Shown: piece after piece, positions 5,795 to 29,058 of the stretch
How positions within the stretch are numbered: position 1 is the stretch's first letter
How the letters are laid out: each line of letters opens with the position of its first letter
Source: an uncultured virus (IMG/VR IMGVR_UViG_3300020048_000069)
Taxonomy: Duplodnaviria; Heunggongvirae; Uroviricota; Caudoviricetes
Length of the DNA: 34,232 bases
IMG/VR virus record: IMGVR_UViG_3300020048_000069
Strand: one strand, 5' to 3'
The notes under the pieces: generated by a model
Database searches by the model: none
What the model saw: only the letters and a program-made list of their open reading frames with translations
Told to the model about the DNA's origin: nothing
Made by a program: the position numbers and the translations under genes

Positions 5795-5802
5795 GATTTA
5801 AT

Positions 5803-5849
5803 TGGTAGGCACGATTGGGTTTGAACCAACGACCCCTACCGTGTCAGGG
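5803..5849 (-). other. attP core: 3' half of tRNA-Val(GAC)
   Basis: Minus strand reads CC-CTGACAC-GGTAG-GGGTC-GTTGGTTCAAACCCAAT-CGTGCCT-ACCA (anticodon loop, T arm, acceptor strand, CCA); 5' half absent. Confidence 0.9.
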
Positions 5850-5913: not shown

Positions 5914-6978
5914 TTATGAGTTGCCATGAGTTGTTACTGGTTTTTGTACTGTATCCTGTGACGGCATGTTCCCGATAAGTGATACCCTGGCAGCACCAGA
6001 TACATGCTGATAATGTTTCCTCAGCGTTTCAGGAGAACTTCCGACAATCTCGGATAGTGTTTTGTAATCTGCACCAGATTCAATCGCCGTCGTCACAAAG
6101 AAATGCCTCAGATCGTACATCCTCAGCCGGCGAGTTATCCCGGCCTTCTTCTTTGCAATCCTCCACGCTGTAACCAGCCTTAATATTTGCCGACCATTTT
6201 GGTGAATGATGTATCCCGACGGAACCCCGTCTTTTAATTTCCATGCTTCCAGTTCAGATAAAAATTCTGGATGAATCGGAACTTCCCGGCGTTTTGGACC
6301 GCCTTTATCCGCAGATGTAATCTGAATGGTTCGTGTCTCAAATAATACATGATCCCACCGGAGCGAAAAAAGTTCGACTGCCCCAGGTCTTAATCCGGTG
6401 TACCATGCGATTTTGATTGCACGGAATAATCTCTCGTTTGCATGTTTCAGTATTGCATCTGTTTCAGCCAATGTCGGTGGCTGGATAACTGCATCATTCG
6501 ATGGTGGCAACTGGTAATCACGGATATTATTTAATGGTATCATCGGCGGGCGGCGCTTGACTGCCCAACTCATCACGGATTTAATATCCGTCAACTCACG
6601 GCGGATCGTGTTCATTCGGACTGTTTTGTGTCGCTCTCTGATGTACCTGTCAAGATCGTCATACGATAAAGCCATTGCTTTGACTTGCCCTAAAACAGGG
6701 ATGATGATCGAGTAAAATCGTATCTTGCATAGCTTTTCAGAATTGGGATTGAAATTATGGTGGAGGATATAATCACCGACTAAATCATGGAAGAAAGGAC
6801 TTTCGTCATTATCTGCTCTTGGTTTTGTCTTCTTGAAATCCAGTCCATTATCCCTCTCCCTCGCCTTTGATTCTGCGATTGCTCCCCTACCGAAATATTC
6901 CCACCTGAATTTACTCTTTTTCTCAGGATCATAAATCTTGACGATCCACCGGCCATCTTTGAGTTGGTGAACACTCAT
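5914..6978 (-). CDS. int: Tyrosine recombinase (phage integrase)
   Basis: N-terminal arm-binding-like domain; YTGLRPG..EL, YDLRH, HY motifs; adjacent att site. Confidence 0.93.
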   Translation of the reverse strand: MSVHQLKDGRWIVKIYDPEKKSKFRWEYFGRGAIAESKARERDNGLDFKKTKPRADNDESPFFHDLVGDYILHHNFNPNSEKLCKIRFYSIIIPVLGQVKAMALSYDDLDRYIRERHKTVRMNTIRRELTDIKSVMSWAVKRRPPMIPLNNIRDYQLPPSNDAVIQPPTLAETDAILKHANERLFRAIKIAWYTGLRPGAVELFSLRWDHVLFETRTIQITSADKGGPKRREVPIHPEFLSELEAWKLKDGVPSGYIIHQNGRQILRLVTAWRIAKKKAGITRRLRMYDLRHFFVTTAIESGADYKTLSEIVGSSPETLRKHYQHVSGAARVSLIGNMPSQDTVQKPVTTHGNS

Positions 6979-9079: not shown

Positions 9080-9496
9080 TTAAAATAACTTTAATTGCTC
9101 TTTTTTAGCCTGCACTGCACTATAAACATCCCGGCACGCCCTGAACCGATGCTTGTATCTCATGTATCCAATGAAATCTTTCCCACCATTAAACTCCACA
9201 CCCCAGGCGCTACGTTTCGTGCCCCGCTCCGGATAAACACTACATGAAATATAAAAATCTTCACTACCCCACAAGTCAGAAAAATATTTTTCGTTAATTG
9301 TTGGTTCCTCGCTACGATCAACTAACGTTTGCAGCTCGGTAACAGTTGGCAGTCGCCAGTCCGTATATCCTCCAAGTGTCATTACTGAACAAAATCGAAT
9401 AGAGTCTGCCCAGTTTAACGATTGTGCTGTTTCTTGCTGCCACATCAGCCCGGTGGTTTCGTCGGTTACAGTACCATTGCCGTTATCTATCATCAA
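9080..9496 (-). CDS. DUF1566 (Lcl C-terminal-like) domain protein
   Basis: DNGNGTVTD..TGLMWQQ..GGYTDWRLPT..EL..AWGVEF..G..RACR. Confidence 0.85.
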   Translation of the reverse strand: MMIDNGNGTVTDETTGLMWQQETAQSLNWADSIRFCSVMTLGGYTDWRLPTVTELQTLVDRSEEPTINEKYFSDLWGSEDFYISCSVYPERGTKRSAWGVEFNGGKDFIGYMRYKHRFRACRDVYSAVQAKKEQLKLF

Positions 9497-9873
9497 TTAT
9501 CTCCCGTTGAGTTTCCATCATGAACAGCGCGGACATATAAACCGAAGTTCTTAAAGTTCCGATAGTCGTATCCGTCTCCAAAGTGTACGCACCAAGCATG
9601 CGTAGCACTATATGCGTAGATAGTTGATGTCCAATAAAATGACGAAAACGTATTAGGAAAATACACTGGATCAATCGCTGGATTACATCTGTTGTAATTT
9701 ACTAAACTTTTTAATTCCATTATAGTGGGCAGCCTCCAGCCTGTATATCCTGCCAGTTTCATGTCTGAGCAAAACCGAATAGCATCAGTCCAACACAAAG
9801 ATATTGGTGTCTCTTGCTGCCACATCAGGCCGGTTGATTTGTCTGTCACAGTACCGTTGCCGTTGTCGATCAT
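9493..9873 (-). CDS. DUF1566 domain protein (paralog)
   Basis: Same motifs; YWTST..AWCVHFGDG..YVRAV. Confidence 0.85.
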   Translation of the reverse strand: MIDNGNGTVTDKSTGLMWQQETPISLCWTDAIRFCSDMKLAGYTGWRLPTIMELKSLVNYNRCNPAIDPVYFPNTFSSFYWTSTIYAYSATHAWCVHFGDGYDYRNFKNFGLYVRAVHDGNSTGDN

Positions 9874-10045
9874 TGTTTCCCTTTTAGTTCGCATGTTATT
9901 GAATCTGCAATCACTATCAACCTGTTATTCTCAATCACCCATGCACTATCCATTGATGTTAGTATTTGATCAATAATTTCCTGATTGTCTGATTTTCGAT
10001 AATGACCGTCCATTTCCAGTTTGATTTCAATGATTGCTCTCATTA

Positions 10046-10437: not shown

Positions 10438-11064
10438 TCAAATAGTTCGATAATTATTGCAATTATCCAAATCCAATCCGGTTGCGTATCCGCAATAATA
10501 CACCAGGTGTTTGCATTGATTGCAGTAAATCCATTTTGAGCTGCCAGCTACGACATTAATTTTATGCTTGATACTGCATCGTGGACACTGAGCAAGTATA
10601 TTAACATGTTCAATCAATATATTTTTCTGTTCTGGTTTGAGTCTGATTTTAGGAGTAACAACACCAAGTTTTCTTTTTTCTACCAGCAATTTGCGTGAGT
10701 GCGTGTTATTCCGATAGGCTCTTTTTTTGAAACATACTAAATCATAGCAATATCTTCGTAATGTAGATTTGCTCTAAAATATATTTCCACAAAAACCACA
10801 TACCTTATCGTATATAATCTGTGATCTTTGTTTTTTTAATTGTTTTTTTTCTTGTATTCTTCTGAAAGATATTTCCGTACATTCGCCAGCATGTATTCTT
10901 CTATGTGATTCAGTTACAGGTTTAAAGCAAATAACACAGATGTGTTTGCCTTTTCTATGATAGAGTTTGCGTTTTCGTGCTAACTCTCCTTTATGCCTAC
11001 ATCCAGAACTGCAATATTTACGAGATGAAGGATTGCCACAAATAACGCACGATTTATATTTCAT
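10438..11064 (-). pseudogene. Multi-Zn-finger gene interrupted by one in-frame TAG (10774-10776); paralog of 8358..8798
   Basis: Track ORFs 10774..11064 and 10438..10689 share a frame, joined by 28 sense codons; the TAG splits CGFC..F*..RRYCYDLVC. Confidence 0.65.
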
Positions 11065-11888
11065 CAGTCTCCCTCCAGGTTTTTTAAAATAAAATCACCG
11101 CAGGCTCCCGTCCGTTGTTTGATTTCATACGGATGATCTTTATGCAGACAGCACCGCATAAGCCCAGTCCATTGTAAATACTCACACGTCATACAATCTC
11201 GCAGCGTTTGTATCGCCTCTGATGGCATCCAGCACGTTATCCGATGATCGCACCAACCGCATGTCTGAGAATCTTCTGTAAAAGGCTGCGGCGCTGGATT
11301 GTTTGCCGTGATAATTTGGTATGACTTTTGTTTGAGCTCTTCAAAAACTTCTGAATCAAAATATACTCTCTCGGTGTAGATTTCAGAATTGTTTTTATTT
11401 TGAATGATGAATAAAGTTCTTCCAAGTCCGGCATATCCCATGTAACACTGAGATTGATCATGGTATATCTGATAAGTTTTCTGTACTCCGTGCTGTTGAA
11501 ATGCTTTGAATTTGTTAGCATTACATGACTTAATTTCGAGAATATGTTGTTGTCTGGTAACTCCGTGAATGATTCCGTCTGCGTGCCCTTTGAACCAACC
11601 GTCATGATCTGAAAAAGATTCTTGCTGGCCGTCCACACTGTATCCAGCGAGGCGCAGGTGGTAAATGATTTCTTCTTCTACACGGTCGCCAAATCTGAAC
11701 AACATTAAGACACGTCCATCAAGTGGAAGCGGCGTGTATCCACGGAAAGATAACCATAGCTTCCTGGTACAGGGATCTCCAATTGCCGACATCCCCAAGT
11801 ACGATCGGCGCGTCTGGTTGTCTCGTGAACGTGCGGCGGCTTCATACATCTCATTTGCAATTTTATCGAATGGTGGCATCTTGCTCAA
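11064..11888 (-). CDS. Cas4-like PD-(D/E)XK exonuclease
   Basis: YLGMSAIGDPC, GHADG..LEIKS, Q..YM, CGWC....C; recombination-module context. Confidence 0.85.
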   Translation of the reverse strand: MSKMPPFDKIANEMYEAAARSRDNQTRRSYLGMSAIGDPCTRKLWLSFRGYTPLPLDGRVLMLFRFGDRVEEEIIYHLRLAGYSVDGQQESFSDHDGWFKGHADGIIHGVTRQQHILEIKSCNANKFKAFQQHGVQKTYQIYHDQSQCYMGYAGLGRTLFIIQNKNNSEIYTERVYFDSEVFEELKQKSYQIITANNPAPQPFTEDSQTCGWCDHRITCWMPSEAIQTLRDCMTCEYLQWTGLMRCCLHKDHPYEIKQRTGACGDFILKNLEGD

Positions 11889-12730: not shown

Positions 12731-13226
12731 TTGTTTTTTCCTTTTCTCTCGATGCTGAAAAGTTTGTTTTTTCGTGATTGGCTATTTGGTTGTGAATTTG
12801 CGATAACGCATATTTACGCATTTCTACCAAAGATTCAGCCCATTGCTTCGGAGTAAAAATAGCAAACCCATCACTTTCTTTAGGATACAAAACCTTGACT
12901 TTAAACCGCATAATATCAAAAACTGTTTTATCTACTGGGTTTCGTTCGTTCGATAATTTGTACAACAAAAGAAGTCCATATATATCTGCTTTCTCTGCGA
13001 GGCGTTGTATGATTCGCGCATGTTTGTATTGTCCATGATCAATCGCTGCCTCTATGATAGCAATAGGTTCTTTAAAATTGTCTTCCCATTCGATAAAACA
13101 TGCTGAATCCAAATCAATCATAGACAGTTTTCCAGCGTCTTTGTAATCAATAAATCGTTTTATAGAATCTCGTCTATGCCAAGCAGAAAATGATAAATCG
13201 CGCGTACCATACATTTCCTTTTGCAT
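12717..13226 (-). CDS. Putative PD-(D/E)XK-like nuclease-fold protein
   Basis: IDLD..IE..PIAIIE; TGATG coupling to the upstream MTase. Confidence 0.45.
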   Translation of the reverse strand: MQKEMYGTRDLSFSAWHRRDSIKRFIDYKDAGKLSMIDLDSACFIEWEDNFKEPIAIIEAAIDHGQYKHARIIQRLAEKADIYGLLLLYKLSNERNPVDKTVFDIMRFKVKVLYPKESDGFAIFTPKQWAESLVEMRKYALSQIHNQIANHEKTNFSASREKEKTNDRT

Positions 13227-14677
13227 CAAATCCTCCAAACGATTATTTCACGAGTGAGGACAAGGCATTTTTTGTTTTCCTTCGCCCAGATAACCATTTG
13301 CGCGTTATTCTGTTGGCTTTCGTAAGGAACAGAATATCTCATTTCGACTGGCAATTTTACCATTTTTAGCATATCACCAACATGATCAGTGTAATCGTGT
13401 GTTTCATTGGTTTTCCATTGGGTAGGCTGGATGATCAGTGCTATATAAGCGTTTTCGGCTCTTGCACGTTTGAGTTTTTCGGCATACATTTTTACAAGAC
13501 TTGACAACTTTTCATTAAAAGTATCCAATTCCATATTTGCCAAATCATCAGCGTCTTGGCTGTATTGGCCTTGCGCCTGCAACCAATACGGCGGATCAAG
13601 ATAAACCAGCTTAACATCCTTCCATGTTGGCGGAGATAGAACGCCATCTTTAATATCGTGTTGACGAATATCCGAACGAATATCAACAGGTTTGCGGTCA
13701 GAAACCAGATAACGGCGCAACCTGGTTTTGCATAAATCAATTGTTGAACCTCCACCACCAAACGGGTCAATCACGATATCAAATGGCTTTGTATAGAGAT
13801 ACAGCAGGTTATCGACAAAGCTGATTTCACTATTCCCAAAGTGATTCACTTGATCACTGCGTTTCTGCTGCTTCCAAATATTGTAAATCGGCGGTTTGAA
13901 ATACTCATCCATGTGGTTTGCCTTAATCAACAACCGTTTGTCGAGTTTGTAAACGCCTAAGCTATTGGAGTCATCTTGTTCATCATCCTCAAACTGCCTG
14001 TTTTCATTGTCTTGAGTGAGTTCTGGATTTTCCGACAAAACCGGATTTTCGGCAACTGTGCCGTTTTCCCCGTTTCGTAGTAAATCGAGAAACTCACGAA
14101 TTACCTTTTCTGAATAACCGATTGCACCCGCTATTTCATCCTGCGAATAACACCCCATCCACATATTAAACGCCGTTTCCCGCAATTCAACTTTCAAATC
14201 CTTATCAATGCGGCTGGTAGTTTCCCTGATATACCGTTCAGATCGGCTATAATCTTTAGCCATATCTTTCTTGAGTTCAGCCCTGCCTTTCTGGTCAAGG
14301 CTTTCCATTTTTGCTCGATACTCATCGCGTATCAACTTTTTGAGTTCCTTTTCGGTTTGCGGTTGACCATGCCGGAAATTGGAACGTGCCGATTTGCGCT
14401 TAATAGCGTGAACATCTAACTTGCCATCAAATATAAATCCGCTGGTATCCAGATATTCCACATCAATCGTTTTAAGACCGCATTCCTTATGCGCCATCCA
14501 ACGATGCCATCCGTCTAAAAGAATATTGTCTTGATTCAACAGAATTGGCGGGAATTCTCCACCTGCAATAGACATTGCGTATTCTTGTACTTTGGCCGGG
14601 CTTTGTGACTCAGTACGGGTATAAAAATCTTTGTTAAAAACAACTTCGCTGACTATGATAGAAATAACTTCGCTCAT
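13226..14677 (-). CDS. ParB-like N-domain + DNA amino-methyltransferase
   Basis: FPPI..LLDGWHR (ParB); DPFGGGGST (motif I) followed by DPPYW (motif IV). Confidence 0.85.
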   Translation of the reverse strand: MSEVISIIVSEVVFNKDFYTRTESQSPAKVQEYAMSIAGGEFPPILLNQDNILLDGWHRWMAHKECGLKTIDVEYLDTSGFIFDGKLDVHAIKRKSARSNFRHGQPQTEKELKKLIRDEYRAKMESLDQKGRAELKKDMAKDYSRSERYIRETTSRIDKDLKVELRETAFNMWMGCYSQDEIAGAIGYSEKVIREFLDLLRNGENGTVAENPVLSENPELTQDNENRQFEDDEQDDSNSLGVYKLDKRLLIKANHMDEYFKPPIYNIWKQQKRSDQVNHFGNSEISFVDNLLYLYTKPFDIVIDPFGGGGSTIDLCKTRLRRYLVSDRKPVDIRSDIRQHDIKDGVLSPPTWKDVKLVYLDPPYWLQAQGQYSQDADDLANMELDTFNEKLSSLVKMYAEKLKRARAENAYIALIIQPTQWKTNETHDYTDHVGDMLKMVKLPVEMRYSVPYESQQNNAQMVIWAKENKKCLVLTREIIVWRI

Positions 14678-19029: not shown

Positions 19030-19138
19030 GTTAATGGATACTGACAGCCCTAATTTGTTGACTCGGTTTTTGGGATTGCTCGCTGTTGTTACGAGCGGGT
19101 TAATGACACTGTTTGTTTACTCCCGGCTTCCTCCCTTT

Positions 19139-19447
19139 CTATCCCTGTGCGGCTCCGTGCCTGGCTATAACAACATCATCACTGCGTCCATCGTTGTATT
19201 TAACCTCAGCGAATGCGTGAACGACAGCATGAAACACAACCATATATGCCCAGACTGCCATAGGCCCGGTAAGGGTTACTGAATTCCGATCCGCCTGCGG
19301 GATCGTTGCAATCATATTGCCGATATTGGTTCCAACGATTTCAATCGCCTGGGACACAGGTGTCGTTAAGTTAAACCTGCCTGCCACCAACTCAACCTCA
19401 CAGCCTGCGTACAAATCGTTGTTTGTCAAACTCAAATCAATTATCAT
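19139..19447 (-). CDS. Csx3/Crn3-like small protein (candidate ring nuclease)
   Basis: AAGGAG SD; VTLTGPMAVWAYMVVFHAVVH..YNDGR...VVIARH follows the Csx3 G-x4-W-x6-H..D-x-R..H pattern (recalled, not searched). Confidence 0.55.
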   Translation of the reverse strand: MIIDLSLTNNDLYAGCEVELVAGRFNLTTPVSQAIEIVGTNIGNMIATIPQADRNSVTLTGPMAVWAYMVVFHAVVHAFAEVKYNDGRSDDVVIARHGAAQG

Positions 19448-19463
19448 TGTTACTCCTTGCGAC

Positions 19464-19775
19464 CTAACATCCAAGCCGCTTCATTTGTGAATATAATTTT
19501 GATGAATCACCTGAACGATACAGCGTTTCAAGTTCATCCCAATTTTCTACCAAAATCGCCCATGTACCACTCAATTTAGCGACATCTTTAAGATAATTTC
19601 TTGCCTCTGGCACAGCATCCAGGAATTTCACACATCTCATGAAATCTGCATGGTCGATCGGATGACACATAAATTTTGGTTTCATCCCTAACACTGCGCA
19701 CGCCATTGACTCAGAGCTGACTCCGCGTTCTCCATGTATGAGCCATTCAAGTATTTTATCTTTCATCTCAGACAT
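19464..19775 (-). CDS. Conserved phage hypothetical protein
   Basis: WL..GERGVSSE..HP.D.ADF.RC..L..VPE; start 19775 or 19766. Confidence 0.65.
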   Translation of the reverse strand: MSEMKDKILEWLIHGERGVSSESMACAVLGMKPKFMCHPIDHADFMRCVKFLDAVPEARNYLKDVAKLSGTWAILVENWDELETLYRSGDSSKLYSQMKRLGC

Positions 19776-20434: not shown

Positions 20435-20463
20435 ATTATTACATTGTGGCATAATGAAGTCAA
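20435..20463 (-). promoter_or_regulatory. pL-like sigma70 promoter
   Basis: Minus strand TTGACT-17 bp-AATAAT. Confidence 0.65.
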
Positions 20464-20646: not shown

Positions 20647-21129
20647 TTATTTCCCTCCATTTACGATCTTTAGACCATCCGGACGATTCATTGGGGAAGA
20701 ACCCGGCACGTTCATGGATTGTAATGATTTGTCTTTTTTTACATCTTCAATTTCTTTTCGTATCAGTTCACCGAACGATCTTAATCTTTCGTACTGTGCT
20801 CCAGTGCCGCATTCTGTGACATATTCAGCAATACCCATAAGCGAAGTAATAGCATGAATACTTGGCTGCTGTTGGCTCCCATGATTAATGATAACTGGTT
20901 GCGATGTTGAACTTGTATCCATCATAAATAAATCATGATAACTTTTCCCCAAAACGCGCAAGATGTCACTCAAAGATTTCTGAGTAAAATTTCTTTTACC
21001 ATTTTCAAGATTCGTTATTAATGATTGGCTGACACCACTTTTTTCAGAAAGTTCGATCTGTGTCAAACCAGCAATTTCCCTGAATTGCTTCAATCTTACG
21101 CACCAATAATCTGGCGTTGTATCATCCAT
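20647..21129 (-). CDS. CI-like XRE HTH repressor (no S24 peptidase domain seen)
   Basis: RLKQFREIAGLTQIELSEKSGVSQSLITNLENGKR; divergent from cro. Confidence 0.85.
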   Translation of the reverse strand: MDDTTPDYWCVRLKQFREIAGLTQIELSEKSGVSQSLITNLENGKRNFTQKSLSDILRVLGKSYHDLFMMDTSSTSQPVIINHGSQQQPSIHAITSLMGIAEYVTECGTGAQYERLRSFGELIRKEIEDVKKDKSLQSMNVPGSSPMNRPDGLKIVNGGK

Positions 21130-21150: not shown

Positions 21151-21180
21151 ATTGACAACAAGATGTCAATTTGAAATAAT
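21151..21180 (+). promoter_or_regulatory. pR-like promoter with palindromic operator candidate
   Basis: TTGACA(21152)-17 bp-AATAAT; ATTGACA-N6-TGTCAAT palindrome overlaps the -35. Confidence 0.7.
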
Positions 21181-21186
21181 TATGCC

Positions 21187-21426
21187 ATGACACTTGAAGA
21201 ATTCTTAAAAATTAATAAAATTACCACAACTGAATTTTCGATGAAAATATCGTGTGGTCAACCAACAGTCTCCAACCTCTGTAACAGGAAACGTAGGCCA
21301 TCACCCCGGCTCGCCCTTCGTATCGAACAAGCCACCGGTGGACAAGTCACACGCGATATGATGCTTTATCCCGAACTGTACGCCACCACCGACACTACCC
21401 AAAAATCAAACAACCTAACCGAATAA
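21187..21426 (+). CDS. Cro-like HTH protein
   Basis: QPTVSNL..RRPSPRLALRIEQATGGQVT. Confidence 0.85.
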   Translation: MTLEEFLKINKITTTEFSMKISCGQPTVSNLCNRKRRPSPRLALRIEQATGGQVTRDMMLYPELYATTDTTQKSNNLTE

Positions 21427-21876: not shown

Positions 21877-23157
21877 ATGTTTGATACTAAATATCAATTT
21901 TTCGATGATCTCAGCGTTGATGAATATCAATCGCTGAAATCATCAATTGAAACACACGGCGTTCTGGTGCCGGTTGAATACGATGATGCCGGTAATGTGC
22001 TGGATGGACACCACCGCTTGAAGGCTTGCGCTGAACTCGGTGTCACAATCTGGGGACGCATGATCCGACCAGGATTATCCGAGGCAGAAAAAAAGAACCA
22101 TGTTCGGATTTTGAATATCGCCAGGCGGCAGCTTACCAAAGATCAAAGGGTTAAACTTTGGGAAGAAATGCGTGCCGACGGCATGACGCTGGCGGCCATT
22201 GCTGCGGCGGACGGTACGGTAAGCATCAACACGGTGAAGAGTGCAATTGATAATTCAACTTTGCAAAATTGCAAAGTTGACATCCCAACCAAAACCATCG
22301 GCAAAGACGGCAAAGCCAGGAAGACGAAGTACTCCAAAACCCCAAAATTCAAACATACCTATATCCACGAAAACGAACTTGAAAAAATCCTTGCACTGCC
22401 AGAAGAACAACAGACGGCAGTTCTTACAGGTGAAAAAACACTTCCTGAAATTAAATCAGATGTGAAAAAAGAACAAATCCAGCAGCGAAAAGAAGCAATC
22501 GAAACAACACTTAAATTCGAAATCAAGAATATCCCAAAAGTACAATGCACAAATGCAATTGATTTTCTATCCGACATTAAAGACAATAGCATTGATTTAT
22601 TAATCACAGATCCTCCGTACTCCACAGACGTTGATGATATTTTAGCGTTTGCTCAGTCATGGCTTCCGGCAGCATTGAATAAAGTCAAGGATACTGGGTT
22701 CGCCTTTGTATTTATTGGCGCATATCCAGAGGAAGTTAAGGCATATCTGAATATCGAAACCCCTACTCAAATGCTCGTTTGGGAGTATAAAAACACTCTC
22801 GGCCAGAATCCAAAAGAAAGATATAAACTCAATTACCAGGCAATTCTATTCTATCGCATGAAGAATTCTGGAGACCTGAATATTGATTTGACATCTGAAC
22901 AGTGGGCCGTACAAAGCATTAACGCACCCGACGGCAGGCTTGGGGATCGTTATCACGAATGGCAAAAACCAATTGAATTGGCAGAACGACTAATCAGACA
23001 CACAACAAATGAGGGTGCATCTGTAATTGATCCGTTTTGTTGTACCGGCACGTTTCTTTTAGCTGCTGCAAAACTTAATCGAAACGCCAATGGTTGCGAT
23101 ATATCGAAAGAAAATCTTGAAATAGCAGTTAAAAGAGGATGTGTTTATGCCGGATAA
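21877..23157 (+). CDS. ParB-like N-domain + beta-class N6/N4 DNA methyltransferase
   Basis: VLDGHHRLKA, N..RR.L; IDLLITDPPY, H..QKP..L, DPFCCTGT. Confidence 0.88.
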   Translation: MFDTKYQFFDDLSVDEYQSLKSSIETHGVLVPVEYDDAGNVLDGHHRLKACAELGVTIWGRMIRPGLSEAEKKNHVRILNIARRQLTKDQRVKLWEEMRADGMTLAAIAAADGTVSINTVKSAIDNSTLQNCKVDIPTKTIGKDGKARKTKYSKTPKFKHTYIHENELEKILALPEEQQTAVLTGEKTLPEIKSDVKKEQIQQRKEAIETTLKFEIKNIPKVQCTNAIDFLSDIKDNSIDLLITDPPYSTDVDDILAFAQSWLPAALNKVKDTGFAFVFIGAYPEEVKAYLNIETPTQMLVWEYKNTLGQNPKERYKLNYQAILFYRMKNSGDLNIDLTSEQWAVQSINAPDGRLGDRYHEWQKPIELAERLIRHTTNEGASVIDPFCCTGTFLLAAAKLNRNANGCDISKENLEIAVKRGCVYAG

Positions 23158-27777: not shown

Positions 27778-28044
27778 AGATAGTAAAGGTCACTGGTGTC
27801 TGACAAAATTCTTTCTTGGCTCACGAAACGTAAAGCATGAGCTACAAACCACTTTGTATCTATTTTATTGTCCACAAGGAGTGTCATTCATGTTTAATTT
27901 CATTTGCCTATGGTGTCTTACGCTGAAATTCTATTGCCAAGGCGACACGCTCCCAGATGCCTACGAGGCGGCGGTTTTGACTTCATCGGGGTTCAGGAGA
28001 GTGATTCTTTCAAAGAAACTTAAAAGACAGCCGTGGAGGTTGAA

Positions 28045-29058
28045 ATGATTTATAAATGTCCAGACACAATTGAAGAATTTGATAAACAGTTAGAACAGCT
28101 TCAATTCTGTAAAAAAGAACTTTACAACCAAGCAAAGTCCAGAATTGAATCCGGTGTCGCAAAGAGTGTCAGCGAAGCGTCAAGGCAGTTGGCGGAAGAA
28201 ACTGGAAGAAGTGCGGCGACGATCAGAGACGCAATAATCAGAGAAGATAAAAATAAAGGTGTGGGACTTCCACACCTCTCAGGAACTAATAAATATCAAC
28301 CAGTTACACCAAACTTGAATAATCTTGAATTATCACACGGTGGCGCTCGCATTGGTGCAGGCAGACCATCTGTATCATCAGAAAAATTAACACAAGAAAA
28401 AGTTGAAGAAGTTTTTGAAAGCCAGCCTTCTTTATTCGAAATCGAAGAAATCCAATTGTCAATCATACCAGAACCAGAGATTGAAATAGCAGTCGATTTA
28501 ATCGACGAACACCCGGAAGCCGCTACGGCAATTATTATCAAACATAACCACCGAGCAATCGGCACCGGCGAAAACGAATGGTACACGCCAATCGAATACA
28601 TCCAAGCCGTTAAAAAAGTTTTCAGCGAAATTGATCTTGATCCTGCATCCAGTGAACAAGCGCAAGAAACTGTTATGGCTAAATCATTTTTTACAATCAA
28701 TGATAATGGACTCTCAAAAACATGGAACGGCAAAATATTTCTTAATCCACCGTACACACAACCTGACATTAAGAATTTCATACAAAAAGCAGTTGATGAA
28801 TATTCATCCGGCAATATTCAGGAAGCAATCATTTTAACTCACAATTATACCGATACGAGTTGGTTTCATTCTGCTGCTTCTAAATGTTCTGCAATTTGTT
28901 TCACTCGGGGGAGAATTGGCTTTTTAAGTCCAGAAGGTAAGAAAGCCGCTCCAACTCAAGGCCAAGCATTTTTTTACTTCGGAGATACACCAGATAAATT
29001 CGTAAATGTTTTTGCTGATTATGGACAAATATTCACACCTAAAACTCCAGGATATTAA
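28045..29058 (+). CDS. Phage N6-adenine DNA methyltransferase (phage Dam-like family) with N-terminal extension
   Basis: NEWYTP, DLDPAS, GL...W.G.IFLNPPY, GRI.F; GGAGG SD; HGGARIGAGRP motif. Confidence 0.88.
   Translation: MIYKCPDTIEEFDKQLEQLQFCKKELYNQAKSRIESGVAKSVSEASRQLAEETGRSAATIRDAIIREDKNKGVGLPHLSGTNKYQPVTPNLNNLELSHGGARIGAGRPSVSSEKLTQEKVEEVFESQPSLFEIEEIQLSIIPEPEIEIAVDLIDEHPEAATAIIIKHNHRAIGTGENEWYTPIEYIQAVKKVFSEIDLDPASSEQAQETVMAKSFFTINDNGLSKTWNGKIFLNPPYTQPDIKNFIQKAVDEYSSGNIQEAIILTHNYTDTSWFHSAASKCSAICFTRGRIGFLSPEGKKAAPTQGQAFFYFGDTPDKFVNVFADYGQIFTPKTPGY

Follow-up and report, generated by a model that had tools for sequence, protein, structure and literature searches.

A divergent Csx3-like protein in the early operon of an uncultured phage, a candidate anti-type III CRISPR ring nuclease

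Background

Viral ring nucleases show how phages defeat the signalling of type III CRISPR systems. Eight extrinsic ring-nuclease families are known (PMC13148439). In the papers cited here, the only dedicated anti-CRISPR families named are AcrIII-1 and AcrIII-2 (PMC12409355, PMC13148439, PMC12751052), the latter being called the first viral SAVED ring nuclease (PMC12751052). A 2025 survey ran models of Crn1, Crn2, Crn3, Csx15, Csx16 and Csx20 over 28,114 phage genomes and found AcrIII-1 in 36 genomes, Csx20 in four and Csx16 in two, with no Crn3 reported (PMC12409355). Here we describe P0001, a gene in the 34,232-nucleotide sequence of the uncultured virus IMGVR_UViG_3300020048_000069 (this whole stretch is referred to below as the window), whose product we class as a divergent relative of Csx3. 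We put the probability that it is a ring nuclease acting against type III CRISPR at roughly one half.

The Crn3/Csx3 family (PF09620, TIGR02579) includes AF1864 of Archaeoglobus fulgidus (AfCsx3) and the Csx3 of Methanosarcina mazei. AfCsx3 requires Mn2+; its histidines H57, H60 and H80 are absolutely conserved and share one dimer face, the opposite face carries D69 and R71, and S44, G45, R46 and I49 contact cyclic tetra-adenylate (cA4) (PMC7371418, PMC8284326). The set H57, H60, D69, R71 and H80 is named as conserved and required, and H57 and H60 are located at the symmetry plane of the dimer (PMC7371418). P0001 is alike in size, at about 100 residues, and the order of its secondary-structure elements, read by eye from the predicted model and from an alignment of canonical Crn3 sequences, looks alike. 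Both have the motif [ST]-G-x3-[IV]-W, two histidines in a helix, an Asp-x-Arg loop and a histidine in a C-terminal strand, and P0001 is likewise predicted to be a homodimer in which the helix bearing the histidines sits at the two-fold axis. In P0001 the first helix is longer than in Crn3/Csx3 and the N-terminal segment is distinctive (I-D-L-S-L-x-N...A-G-R-x-N-L), and the P0001 family is found in phages and in genomes of the Candidate Phyla Radiation (CPR), away from cas genes.

The role that we propose for P0001 is also that of AcrIII-1 (DUF1874, Crn2) and AcrIII-2 (viral SAVED): a small phage enzyme that destroys cA4. As in AcrIII-2 and Csx3, its active site would be a composite one, with cA4 sandwiched between subunits. 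An earlier note on this DNA, made by a model from the letters of the window, had proposed a Csx3-like ring nuclease here and had set it apart from AcrIII-1 as having a different fold; PMC7371418, which places AcrIII-1 in DUF1874, agrees, and P0001 has no match to DUF1874 in Pfam or PADLOC. The CARF and SAVED sensors (Cap5, Cap4, Cat1, Cad1, Csm6) likewise show no sequence match to P0001, which is much smaller and has a single domain, and the conserved residues of P0001 fit Csx3 and not the CARF or SAVED motifs. A full-text literature search found no description of a phage- or virus-encoded Csx3.

Results and discussion

Homology to the Csx3 family

Scans of model collections lead to Csx3 and to little else. 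Just two of the 5027 PADLOC models match P0001, namely Csx3 (CARF) with E 3.4e-7 and Csx3-AAA with E 1.5e-4, and its sole match among 24736 Pfam models is Cas_csx3 (E 0.048). When 36 members of the family were scanned, 14 matched Cas_csx3 (PF09620) at E<=1 (best 3.6e-4); twelve other Pfam families had one matching member each. Three of the 56 distant family-profile matches scanned, all of them tandem-domain proteins, pass the Pfam Cas_csx3 cut-off (P0216 at 23.9, P0238 at 43.1 and P0240 at 41.0 bits). A PHROG scan gave no match for P0001, and a phmmer search with P0001 against PDB sequences returned just two weak unrelated rows.

A chain of profile comparisons joins the family to canonical Crn3. 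The profiles compared were A1, built from the family of P0001; A2, a subfamily of short Csx3 proteins of about 80 residues; and A3, an alignment of 24 canonical Crn3 sequences that takes in Methanosarcina proteins named Crn3/Csx3 by NCBI. Matches to PF09620 occur in 19 of the 401 genomes of the phylum to which G001, a metagenome-assembled genome (MAG) containing a phage related to ours, belongs; these are three canonical Crn3 genes and short forms of about 80 residues. A1 aligns with A2 over its whole length (hhalign probability 96.25, E 2e-9, 79 columns), and A2 with A3 at a probability of 96.4 and E 1.1e-9. Against PDB, A2 retrieves AfCsx3 chains only (best E 0.0016).

The short subfamily A2, which is CRISPR-linked and drawn from the phylum of G001, is the closest profile match of the P0001 family. 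The two have in common an N-terminal I-D-x-S-x-L-Y and a core L-T-G-x2-P-[IV]-W-L-Y-L. Unlike P0001, A2 proteins have HxxH and a terminal D-H, carry Y-R-S-P-V-T-G in place of the Asp-x-Arg equivalents, and pass the Pfam cut-off. The A2 copies lie in loci L044-L058 (for example, L049:1504-1746), and their best PADLOC match is the C-terminal domain of CARF_HEPN_CSX3. At least one copy, that in L049, is directly upstream of a Cas1-like open reading frame (ORF), identified by reading the translation only.

Taken together, the PADLOC and Pfam matches, the A1-A2-A3 chain and the Foldseek rows given below support the resemblance to Csx3 that the earlier note had seen, and we hold it very probable that P0001 is homologous to Csx3. 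We class P0001 as a Csx3 superfamily member in a distinct clade, not as a canonical Crn3, because it falls under the curated Pfam and NCBIfam cut-offs despite its PADLOC E-value of 3.4e-7.

The clade is large. A word-indexed search yielded 347 homologous proteins (clusters at 90% identity), nearly all of 96-104 residues; none has a precomputed Pfam domain, and the names given by the sources, where there are any, are "hypothetical protein". In an exhaustive search of 1.84 billion representatives, the family profile reached E<=0.001 for 134 clusters (at 50% identity), 67 of them with E<=1e-10. The nearest clusters in ESM Atlas, mostly of viral taxa, are auto-named "Csx3 family protein" (scores 0.96 and 0.93); we take these names as a lead only, but automatic labelling had thus already pointed towards Csx3. 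With 347 clusters and 12 loci in IMG/VR, the family is common in metagenomic phages. Among the 50,697 GenBank phage records, there was no tblastn match of P0001 and no megablast match of the 3.2 kb around the gene. As judged by these profiles, we describe the P0001 family as a divergent branch of an already known ring-nuclease family, borne by phages and CPR genomes and missed by the curated models.

Conservation of the catalytic residues

Equivalent residues were read from sequence alignments. The histidines H57, H60 and H80 of AfCsx3 correspond to H73, H77 and H97 of P0001, and D69 and R71 correspond to D86 and R88. Of the residues that contact cA4, S44, G45 and I49 are paired with T60, G61 and V65, and the Trp of the AfCsx3 motif G-P-I-W is paired with W66. 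The spacing agrees with AfCsx3 from the Gly to the first His (12), from the second His to the Asp (9), within Asp-x-Arg, and from the Arg to the last His (9). In the 121 sequences nearest to P0001, the residues R24, N26, T60, G61, M63, W66, H73, H77, Y84, D86, G87, H97 and G98 are invariant, and residue 88 is R in 116 and K in five; the three-histidine set and the Asp/Arg set are both kept, with H73, H77, D86 and H97 present in 121 of 121.

Farther out, the histidines come and go as a group. Among 90 distant representatives, all three are present in 29 and all three are absent in 35, and the co-occurrence counts for H73 and H97 (30/11/6/43) depart strongly from independence (Fisher p 4.8e-9). 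Some relatives contain tandem domains, a dimer of the fold having been fused by nature into one chain: P0174, P0188 and P0216 (205-214 residues), P0238 and P0240 (211-252 residues) and P0254 (650 residues, with four matched stretches). In P0174, P0188 and P0216, both halves have Y-x-D-G-R and the histidines are lost; in P0240, each half retains a different part of the catalytic set. Because the histidines are kept or lost jointly, and because tandem relatives keep D-G-R without them, we regard the triad as a separable functional unit, one that is always kept in the P0001 clade.

These patterns bear on an alternative in which P0001 has the Csx3 fold but acts as a sponge, binding a cyclic-oligonucleotide signal and sequestering it while cleaving it little or not at all, as is reported for Csx15; the ligand might induce the protein to stack head to tail. 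No part of the superfamily is kept more widely than the motif of the binding face (T-G...W and Y-x-D-G-R), and many distant relatives, along with the three tandem proteins that have lost the histidines, keep it without them. Binding alone, however, leaves unexplained why the three histidines occur in every one of the 121 members of the P0001 clade, and PMC13148439 has Csx15 as not seen in phage genomes. The constant triad favours catalysis over binding alone, and we consider a sponge unlikely.

One further relative deserves mention. P0248 (128 residues) joins the N-terminal 60 residues of the family to a minimal CRISPR polymerase (mCpol) domain containing GGDD (Pfam E 1.6e-11); this may be a genuine fusion that ties the family to a cyclase, or else a chimera of assembly.

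Predicted structure and dimer

The AlphaFold2 model of P0001 is confident, with a predicted local distance difference test (pLDDT) score of 94.2 and a predicted template-modelling score of 0.84, and its elements follow the order beta, beta-hairpin, helix, beta, helix, beta, beta. In a Foldseek search of PDB, the ten best rows are all AfCsx3 (6YUD, 3WZI, 3WZG, 3WZH and 6VJG; E 0.015-0.042, probability 0.85-0.99). In the structural comparisons as a whole, the best rows include the SAVED domains of Cap5 and Cap4. Against the BFVD viral models, Foldseek had no match with E<=0.001.

Prediction of two copies gave a score of 0.73, as against 0.53 for the best of three controls. Among 30 proteins whose solved structures are pairs of a single chain, 20 reach this mark, as against one among 23 that were solved as lone chains. 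Contacts agreed in 100% between runs, with a partner pLDDT of at least 90. The predicted interface consists of the histidine helix (64-76) and the strands 82-95, and it places H73 beside its symmetry mate at the two-fold axis, which matches the reported location of H57 and H60 in AfCsx3 (PMC7371418). Since AfCsx3 dimers have already been solved, the favourable score may partly reflect likeness to, or memory of, AfCsx3. According to the model, P0001 most likely forms a homodimer.

Structure comparison gives middling scores, nearly equalled by those of RuvC-like folds, and P0001 might share the fold in a role unrelated to nucleotide signalling, or might act on RNA, for example by Mn2+-dependent deadenylation. 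AfCsx3 was in fact first described as an RNA deadenylase and was crystallised with an RNA tetranucleotide (PMC7371418). That description has been superseded by cA4 cleavage (PMC7371418, PMC8284326), the sequence evidence is specific to Csx3, and the catalytic set shows the conservation seen in Crn3. An RNA-directed or unrelated role thus strikes us as the most improbable of the explanations considered.

Type III-A systems in the probable host lineage

Two MAGs contain close relatives of P0001. In G001, labelled Deltaproteobacteria, the protein is 90% identical and belongs with a phage that is syntenic with the window (76-92% nucleotide identity); the relative in G002, labelled Desulfobacteraceae, is 75% identical. 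Both encode a type III-A system, with Cas10/Csm1 (616 and 612 bits, respectively), Csm2-5 and a TIGR02710 CARF protein; G002 additionally has Csm6, Cas1, Cas2 and a SMODS cyclase. Because both Cas10 proteins retain GGDD, as well as an N-terminal HD, the lineage that the phage probably infects can be expected to make cyclic oligoadenylates. No canonical Csx3 over the Pfam cut-off was found in G001 or G002. We also looked for CRISPR-spacer-like matches to the window in both genomes, and none was convincing: the short matches are the probable attachment core in a valine transfer RNA (tRNA-Val), a multi-copy element at 9430-9870 and parts of related prophages, the first two of which are described below.

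Proposed function

P0001 seems likely to bind a cyclic oligoadenylate. The further step, that it is a ring nuclease and an anti-type III CRISPR protein, we hold at the even odds given at the outset; this reading, the best supported of those considered, is strengthened because the equivalents of the catalytic residues are invariant and because the MAGs with the closest related phage contain type III-A systems. In the mechanism that we propose, the phage would make the dimeric Csx3-like enzyme early after infection or induction, from a leftward operon. A cyclic oligoadenylate produced by Cas10, most likely cA4, would bind on the T60/G61, D86 and R88 face of one dimer and would be capped by the H73/H77/H97 face of the next dimer, head to tail. 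As in Crn3, it would then be cut with the help of a divalent metal (Mn2+ in Csx3), and with the second messenger removed, CARF and SAVED effectors would lose their activator and stop firing. That P0001 binds the ligand and cleaves it with a metal, that its dimers join head to tail and that it counters CRISPR are inferences. If active, P0001 would add a metal-dependent, cooperative enzyme of the Csx3 type to phage counter-defence, would offer a small tool to switch off cA4 signalling, and would reveal an entire clade overlooked by the curated models of Csx3.

Several results weigh against this assignment. The Pfam Cas_csx3 score of P0001, 13.9 bits, is under the 21-bit cut-off, and an NCBIfam scan of P0001 gave no match. 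The direct comparison of A1 with A3 is weak (probability 4.3, E 0.0094, 46 columns), though the correct segment is aligned, and A1 searched against PDB misses AfCsx3 and returns one unrelated row (E 1.3). No Foldseek match of the model in PDB reaches E<=0.001, and the TM scores to the AfCsx3 rows are just 0.39-0.43. The earlier note had likened P0001 to AfCsx3 in size and in the spacing of its G, W, H, D-x-R and terminal H. The similarity stands, but with two one-residue differences in register: P0001 has HxxxH where Csx3 has HxxH, and Y-x-D-G-R where Csx3 has Y-D-P-R, with one extra residue after the Tyr. (The form YNDGR is also found in domain 1 of Pfam-positive tandem proteins.) In addition, the position of R46, one of the residues of AfCsx3 that contact cA4, is occupied by a proline, P62. 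The Csx3 of M. mazei was less protective than AcrIII-1 in a plasmid assay (PMC7371418). The link to a host rests on MAGs with related phages and not on the window's own host, and the phage contigs in those MAGs may be mis-binned. Finally, there is no cas gene near the relatives of P0001 in the 35 loci scanned (233 proteins; ORFs of at least 85 residues within five called ORFs on either side), and Cas10 palm2, SMODS and mCpol were found in none of the five CPR genomes with cellular relatives, which are small and incomplete MAGs. For a viral copy, a lack of cas neighbours is expected.

Relatives in viral and cellular genomes

Two of the 12 IMG/VR loci, with relatives at 96% and 90% identity, share the layout of CI-like, Sak4, DUF669 and helicase genes seen in the window; other IMG/VR loci have a terminase (L027, L030), a major capsid (L035) or a PolB gene (L034) nearby. 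There are 24 loci in genomes; 15 bear a CPR/Patescibacteria MAG label, and the neighbours there look cellular. One genome locus, L013, was omitted from the neighbourhood count, as ORF calling had missed the target in it, which leaves 23 loci counted. A divergent TrmB-type helix-turn-helix (HTH) regulator lies alongside in seven of these 23 (L004, L006, L007, L009, L011, L015, L024), a radical S-adenosylmethionine (radical-SAM) gene occurs in four loci (L004-L007), and in three (L004, L005, L012) a small SAVED-domain protein of 159-185 residues directly adjoins the relative. This last adjacency independently ties the family to cyclic-oligonucleotide signalling. The recurring cluster of TrmB, radical-SAM, SAVED and Csx3-like genes in CPR genomes may be a so far undescribed module for signalling or defence. 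We tried viperin as an identity for the radical-SAM neighbour and rejected it: viperin models match the radical-SAM core only, at E 2e-6 to 3.5e-6, far below the cut-off.

With no cyclase found in the CPR genomes, the native substrate of the family need not be the cA4 of type III systems. [quoted passage not shown] The SAVED, radical-SAM and TrmB neighbours favour this explanation, as do the SMODS cyclase of G002 and the presence of the Cap5 and Cap4 SAVED domains among the best structural rows. On the other hand, the characterised Csx3 enzymes are all cA4-specific (PMC7371418, PMC13148439), the residues of AfCsx3 that contact cA4 have equivalents in P0001, type III-A systems together with CARF proteins are present in the MAGs that contain the nearest related phage, and absence from small, incomplete CPR MAGs is weak evidence. 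We consider another signal unlikely too, if by a hair less so than a sponge.

A bolder extension of the ring-nuclease reading is that P0001 founds a third, widespread viral ring-nuclease family derived from Csx3, and that its CPR relatives mark a nucleotide-signalling module without known synthases (Cas10, CD-NTase/SMODS, mCpol), the substrate of which would be an undescribed signal or would come from an undescribed source, such as the host cell of the episymbiont. This we offer as a long shot, behind both the sponge and the other-signal explanations.

Gene model and context in the window

The coordinates of the gene and its surroundings are collected in Table 1. The earlier note had reported a gene of 102 residues here and had quoted a 41-residue string from it, beside an AfCsx3 string; the former is found in the translation of P0001 as residues 57-97, and the latter agrees with the PDB chain sequence. 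In a 36-sequence alignment, most relatives open with the Met of P0001 (M-x-I-D-L-S-L). For this reason we take the TTG start at 19474, a reading of 111 residues that the alignment does not support, as not used. A plus-strand ORF at 19034-19282 overlaps P0001 and was rejected as coding, since it is the product of the minus strand that 347 relatives conserve. In many low-G+C loci (among L005-L012, L023, L024 and L032), an antisense ORF of 130-195 residues, longer than the target, covers the gene and was preferred by the greedy ORF caller; such ORFs are probably artefacts of composition, the sense product being the conserved one.

Table 1. Features of the window and of the recurring gene cluster in CPR loci.
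Feature	Coordinates	Strand	Basis or remark
Csx3/Crn3-like target gene P0001	19139..19447	minus	309 nt, 102 aa + TAG stop; ORF and translation
Conserved Csx3 core, residues 57-97	19157..19279	minus	T60-G61-x3-V65-W66, H73, H77, Y84, D86-G87-R88, H97
Ribosome-binding site AAGGAG	19453..19458	minus	5 nt before ATG at 19447; direct sequence reading
Upstream ORF of same operon, 103 aa	19464..19775	minus	phrog_1229; end overlaps ribosome-binding site of P0001
First ORF after pL-like promoter, 104 aa	20053..20367	minus	no family match; coding status uncertain
pL-like sigma-70 promoter match, TTGACT-17-AATAAT with TG	20435..20463	minus	consensus scan 10/12; pattern match only
CI-like HTH repressor	20647..21129	minus	Pfam HTH_3 E 3.3e-14; PHROG transcriptional repressor/regulator families
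pR-like promoter match	21152..21180	plus	consensus scan 11/12
Cro-like HTH gene	21187..21426	plus	Pfam, PHROG
Two downstream ORFs, 73 aa and 135 aa	18373..18983	minus	between P0001 and HNH/Sak4-like/SSB/helicase block
Tyrosine integrase	5914..6978	minus	Pfam and PHROG integrase
Recurring CPR cluster	L004:4660-8297, L005:4285-5946, L006:573-2966, L007:2775-5168, L012:394-1565		TrmB/radical-SAM/SAVED/Csx3-like genes

The window is a temperate phage or prophage. Its left part has a tail-fibre-like gene and an endolysin gene, followed by the tyrosine integrase. Next comes a leftward block with a Cas4-domain recombination exonuclease, a DNA methyltransferase, a helicase, a single-stranded DNA-binding (SSB)-like DUF669 protein, a Sak4-like annealing protein and an HNH protein, and then P0001. 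To the right of the CI-like gene and the divergent Cro-like gene, the rightward genes encode a ParB-methyltransferase, a primase, a Holliday-junction resolvase and a Dam methylase. P0001 is the third ORF after the pL-like site, transcribed leftward beside the CI/Cro switch, which bears out its placement near the start of a pL operon by the earlier note. That note had also seen no cas locus in the window, and a PADLOC scan of the 62 window ORFs likewise found no Cas, CARF or cyclase, returning just matches of a generic kind (methyltransferase, helicase, HTH, HNH).

Next to the integrase gene, 53 nucleotides (5797-5849) are 100% identical to the 3' part of the tRNA-Val(GAC) gene of G001, where a tRNA-Val was found at the corresponding place (locus L068); no whole tRNA was found in the window. 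These 53 nucleotides are the probable core of the attachment site, and from their identity to tRNA-Val the phage would be expected to integrate into that gene.

Other features of the window are of more general interest. It contains two HNH endonucleases, and the Cas4-domain recombination exonuclease lies at 11064-11888. The DNA methyltransferases are an N6/N4 enzyme at 13226-14677 (minus), a ParB-N6/N4 fusion at 21877-23157 (plus) and one of the Dam type at 28033-29058 (plus); the presence of three is consistent with protection against restriction. The segment 9430-9870, which lies in two minus-strand ORFs (9080-9496 and 9493-9894) that both match phrog_16004, matches more than 25 places on many G001 and G002 contigs at 66-89% identity, and is a multi-copy gene family or mobile element common to the phage and to MAGs of the host lineage.

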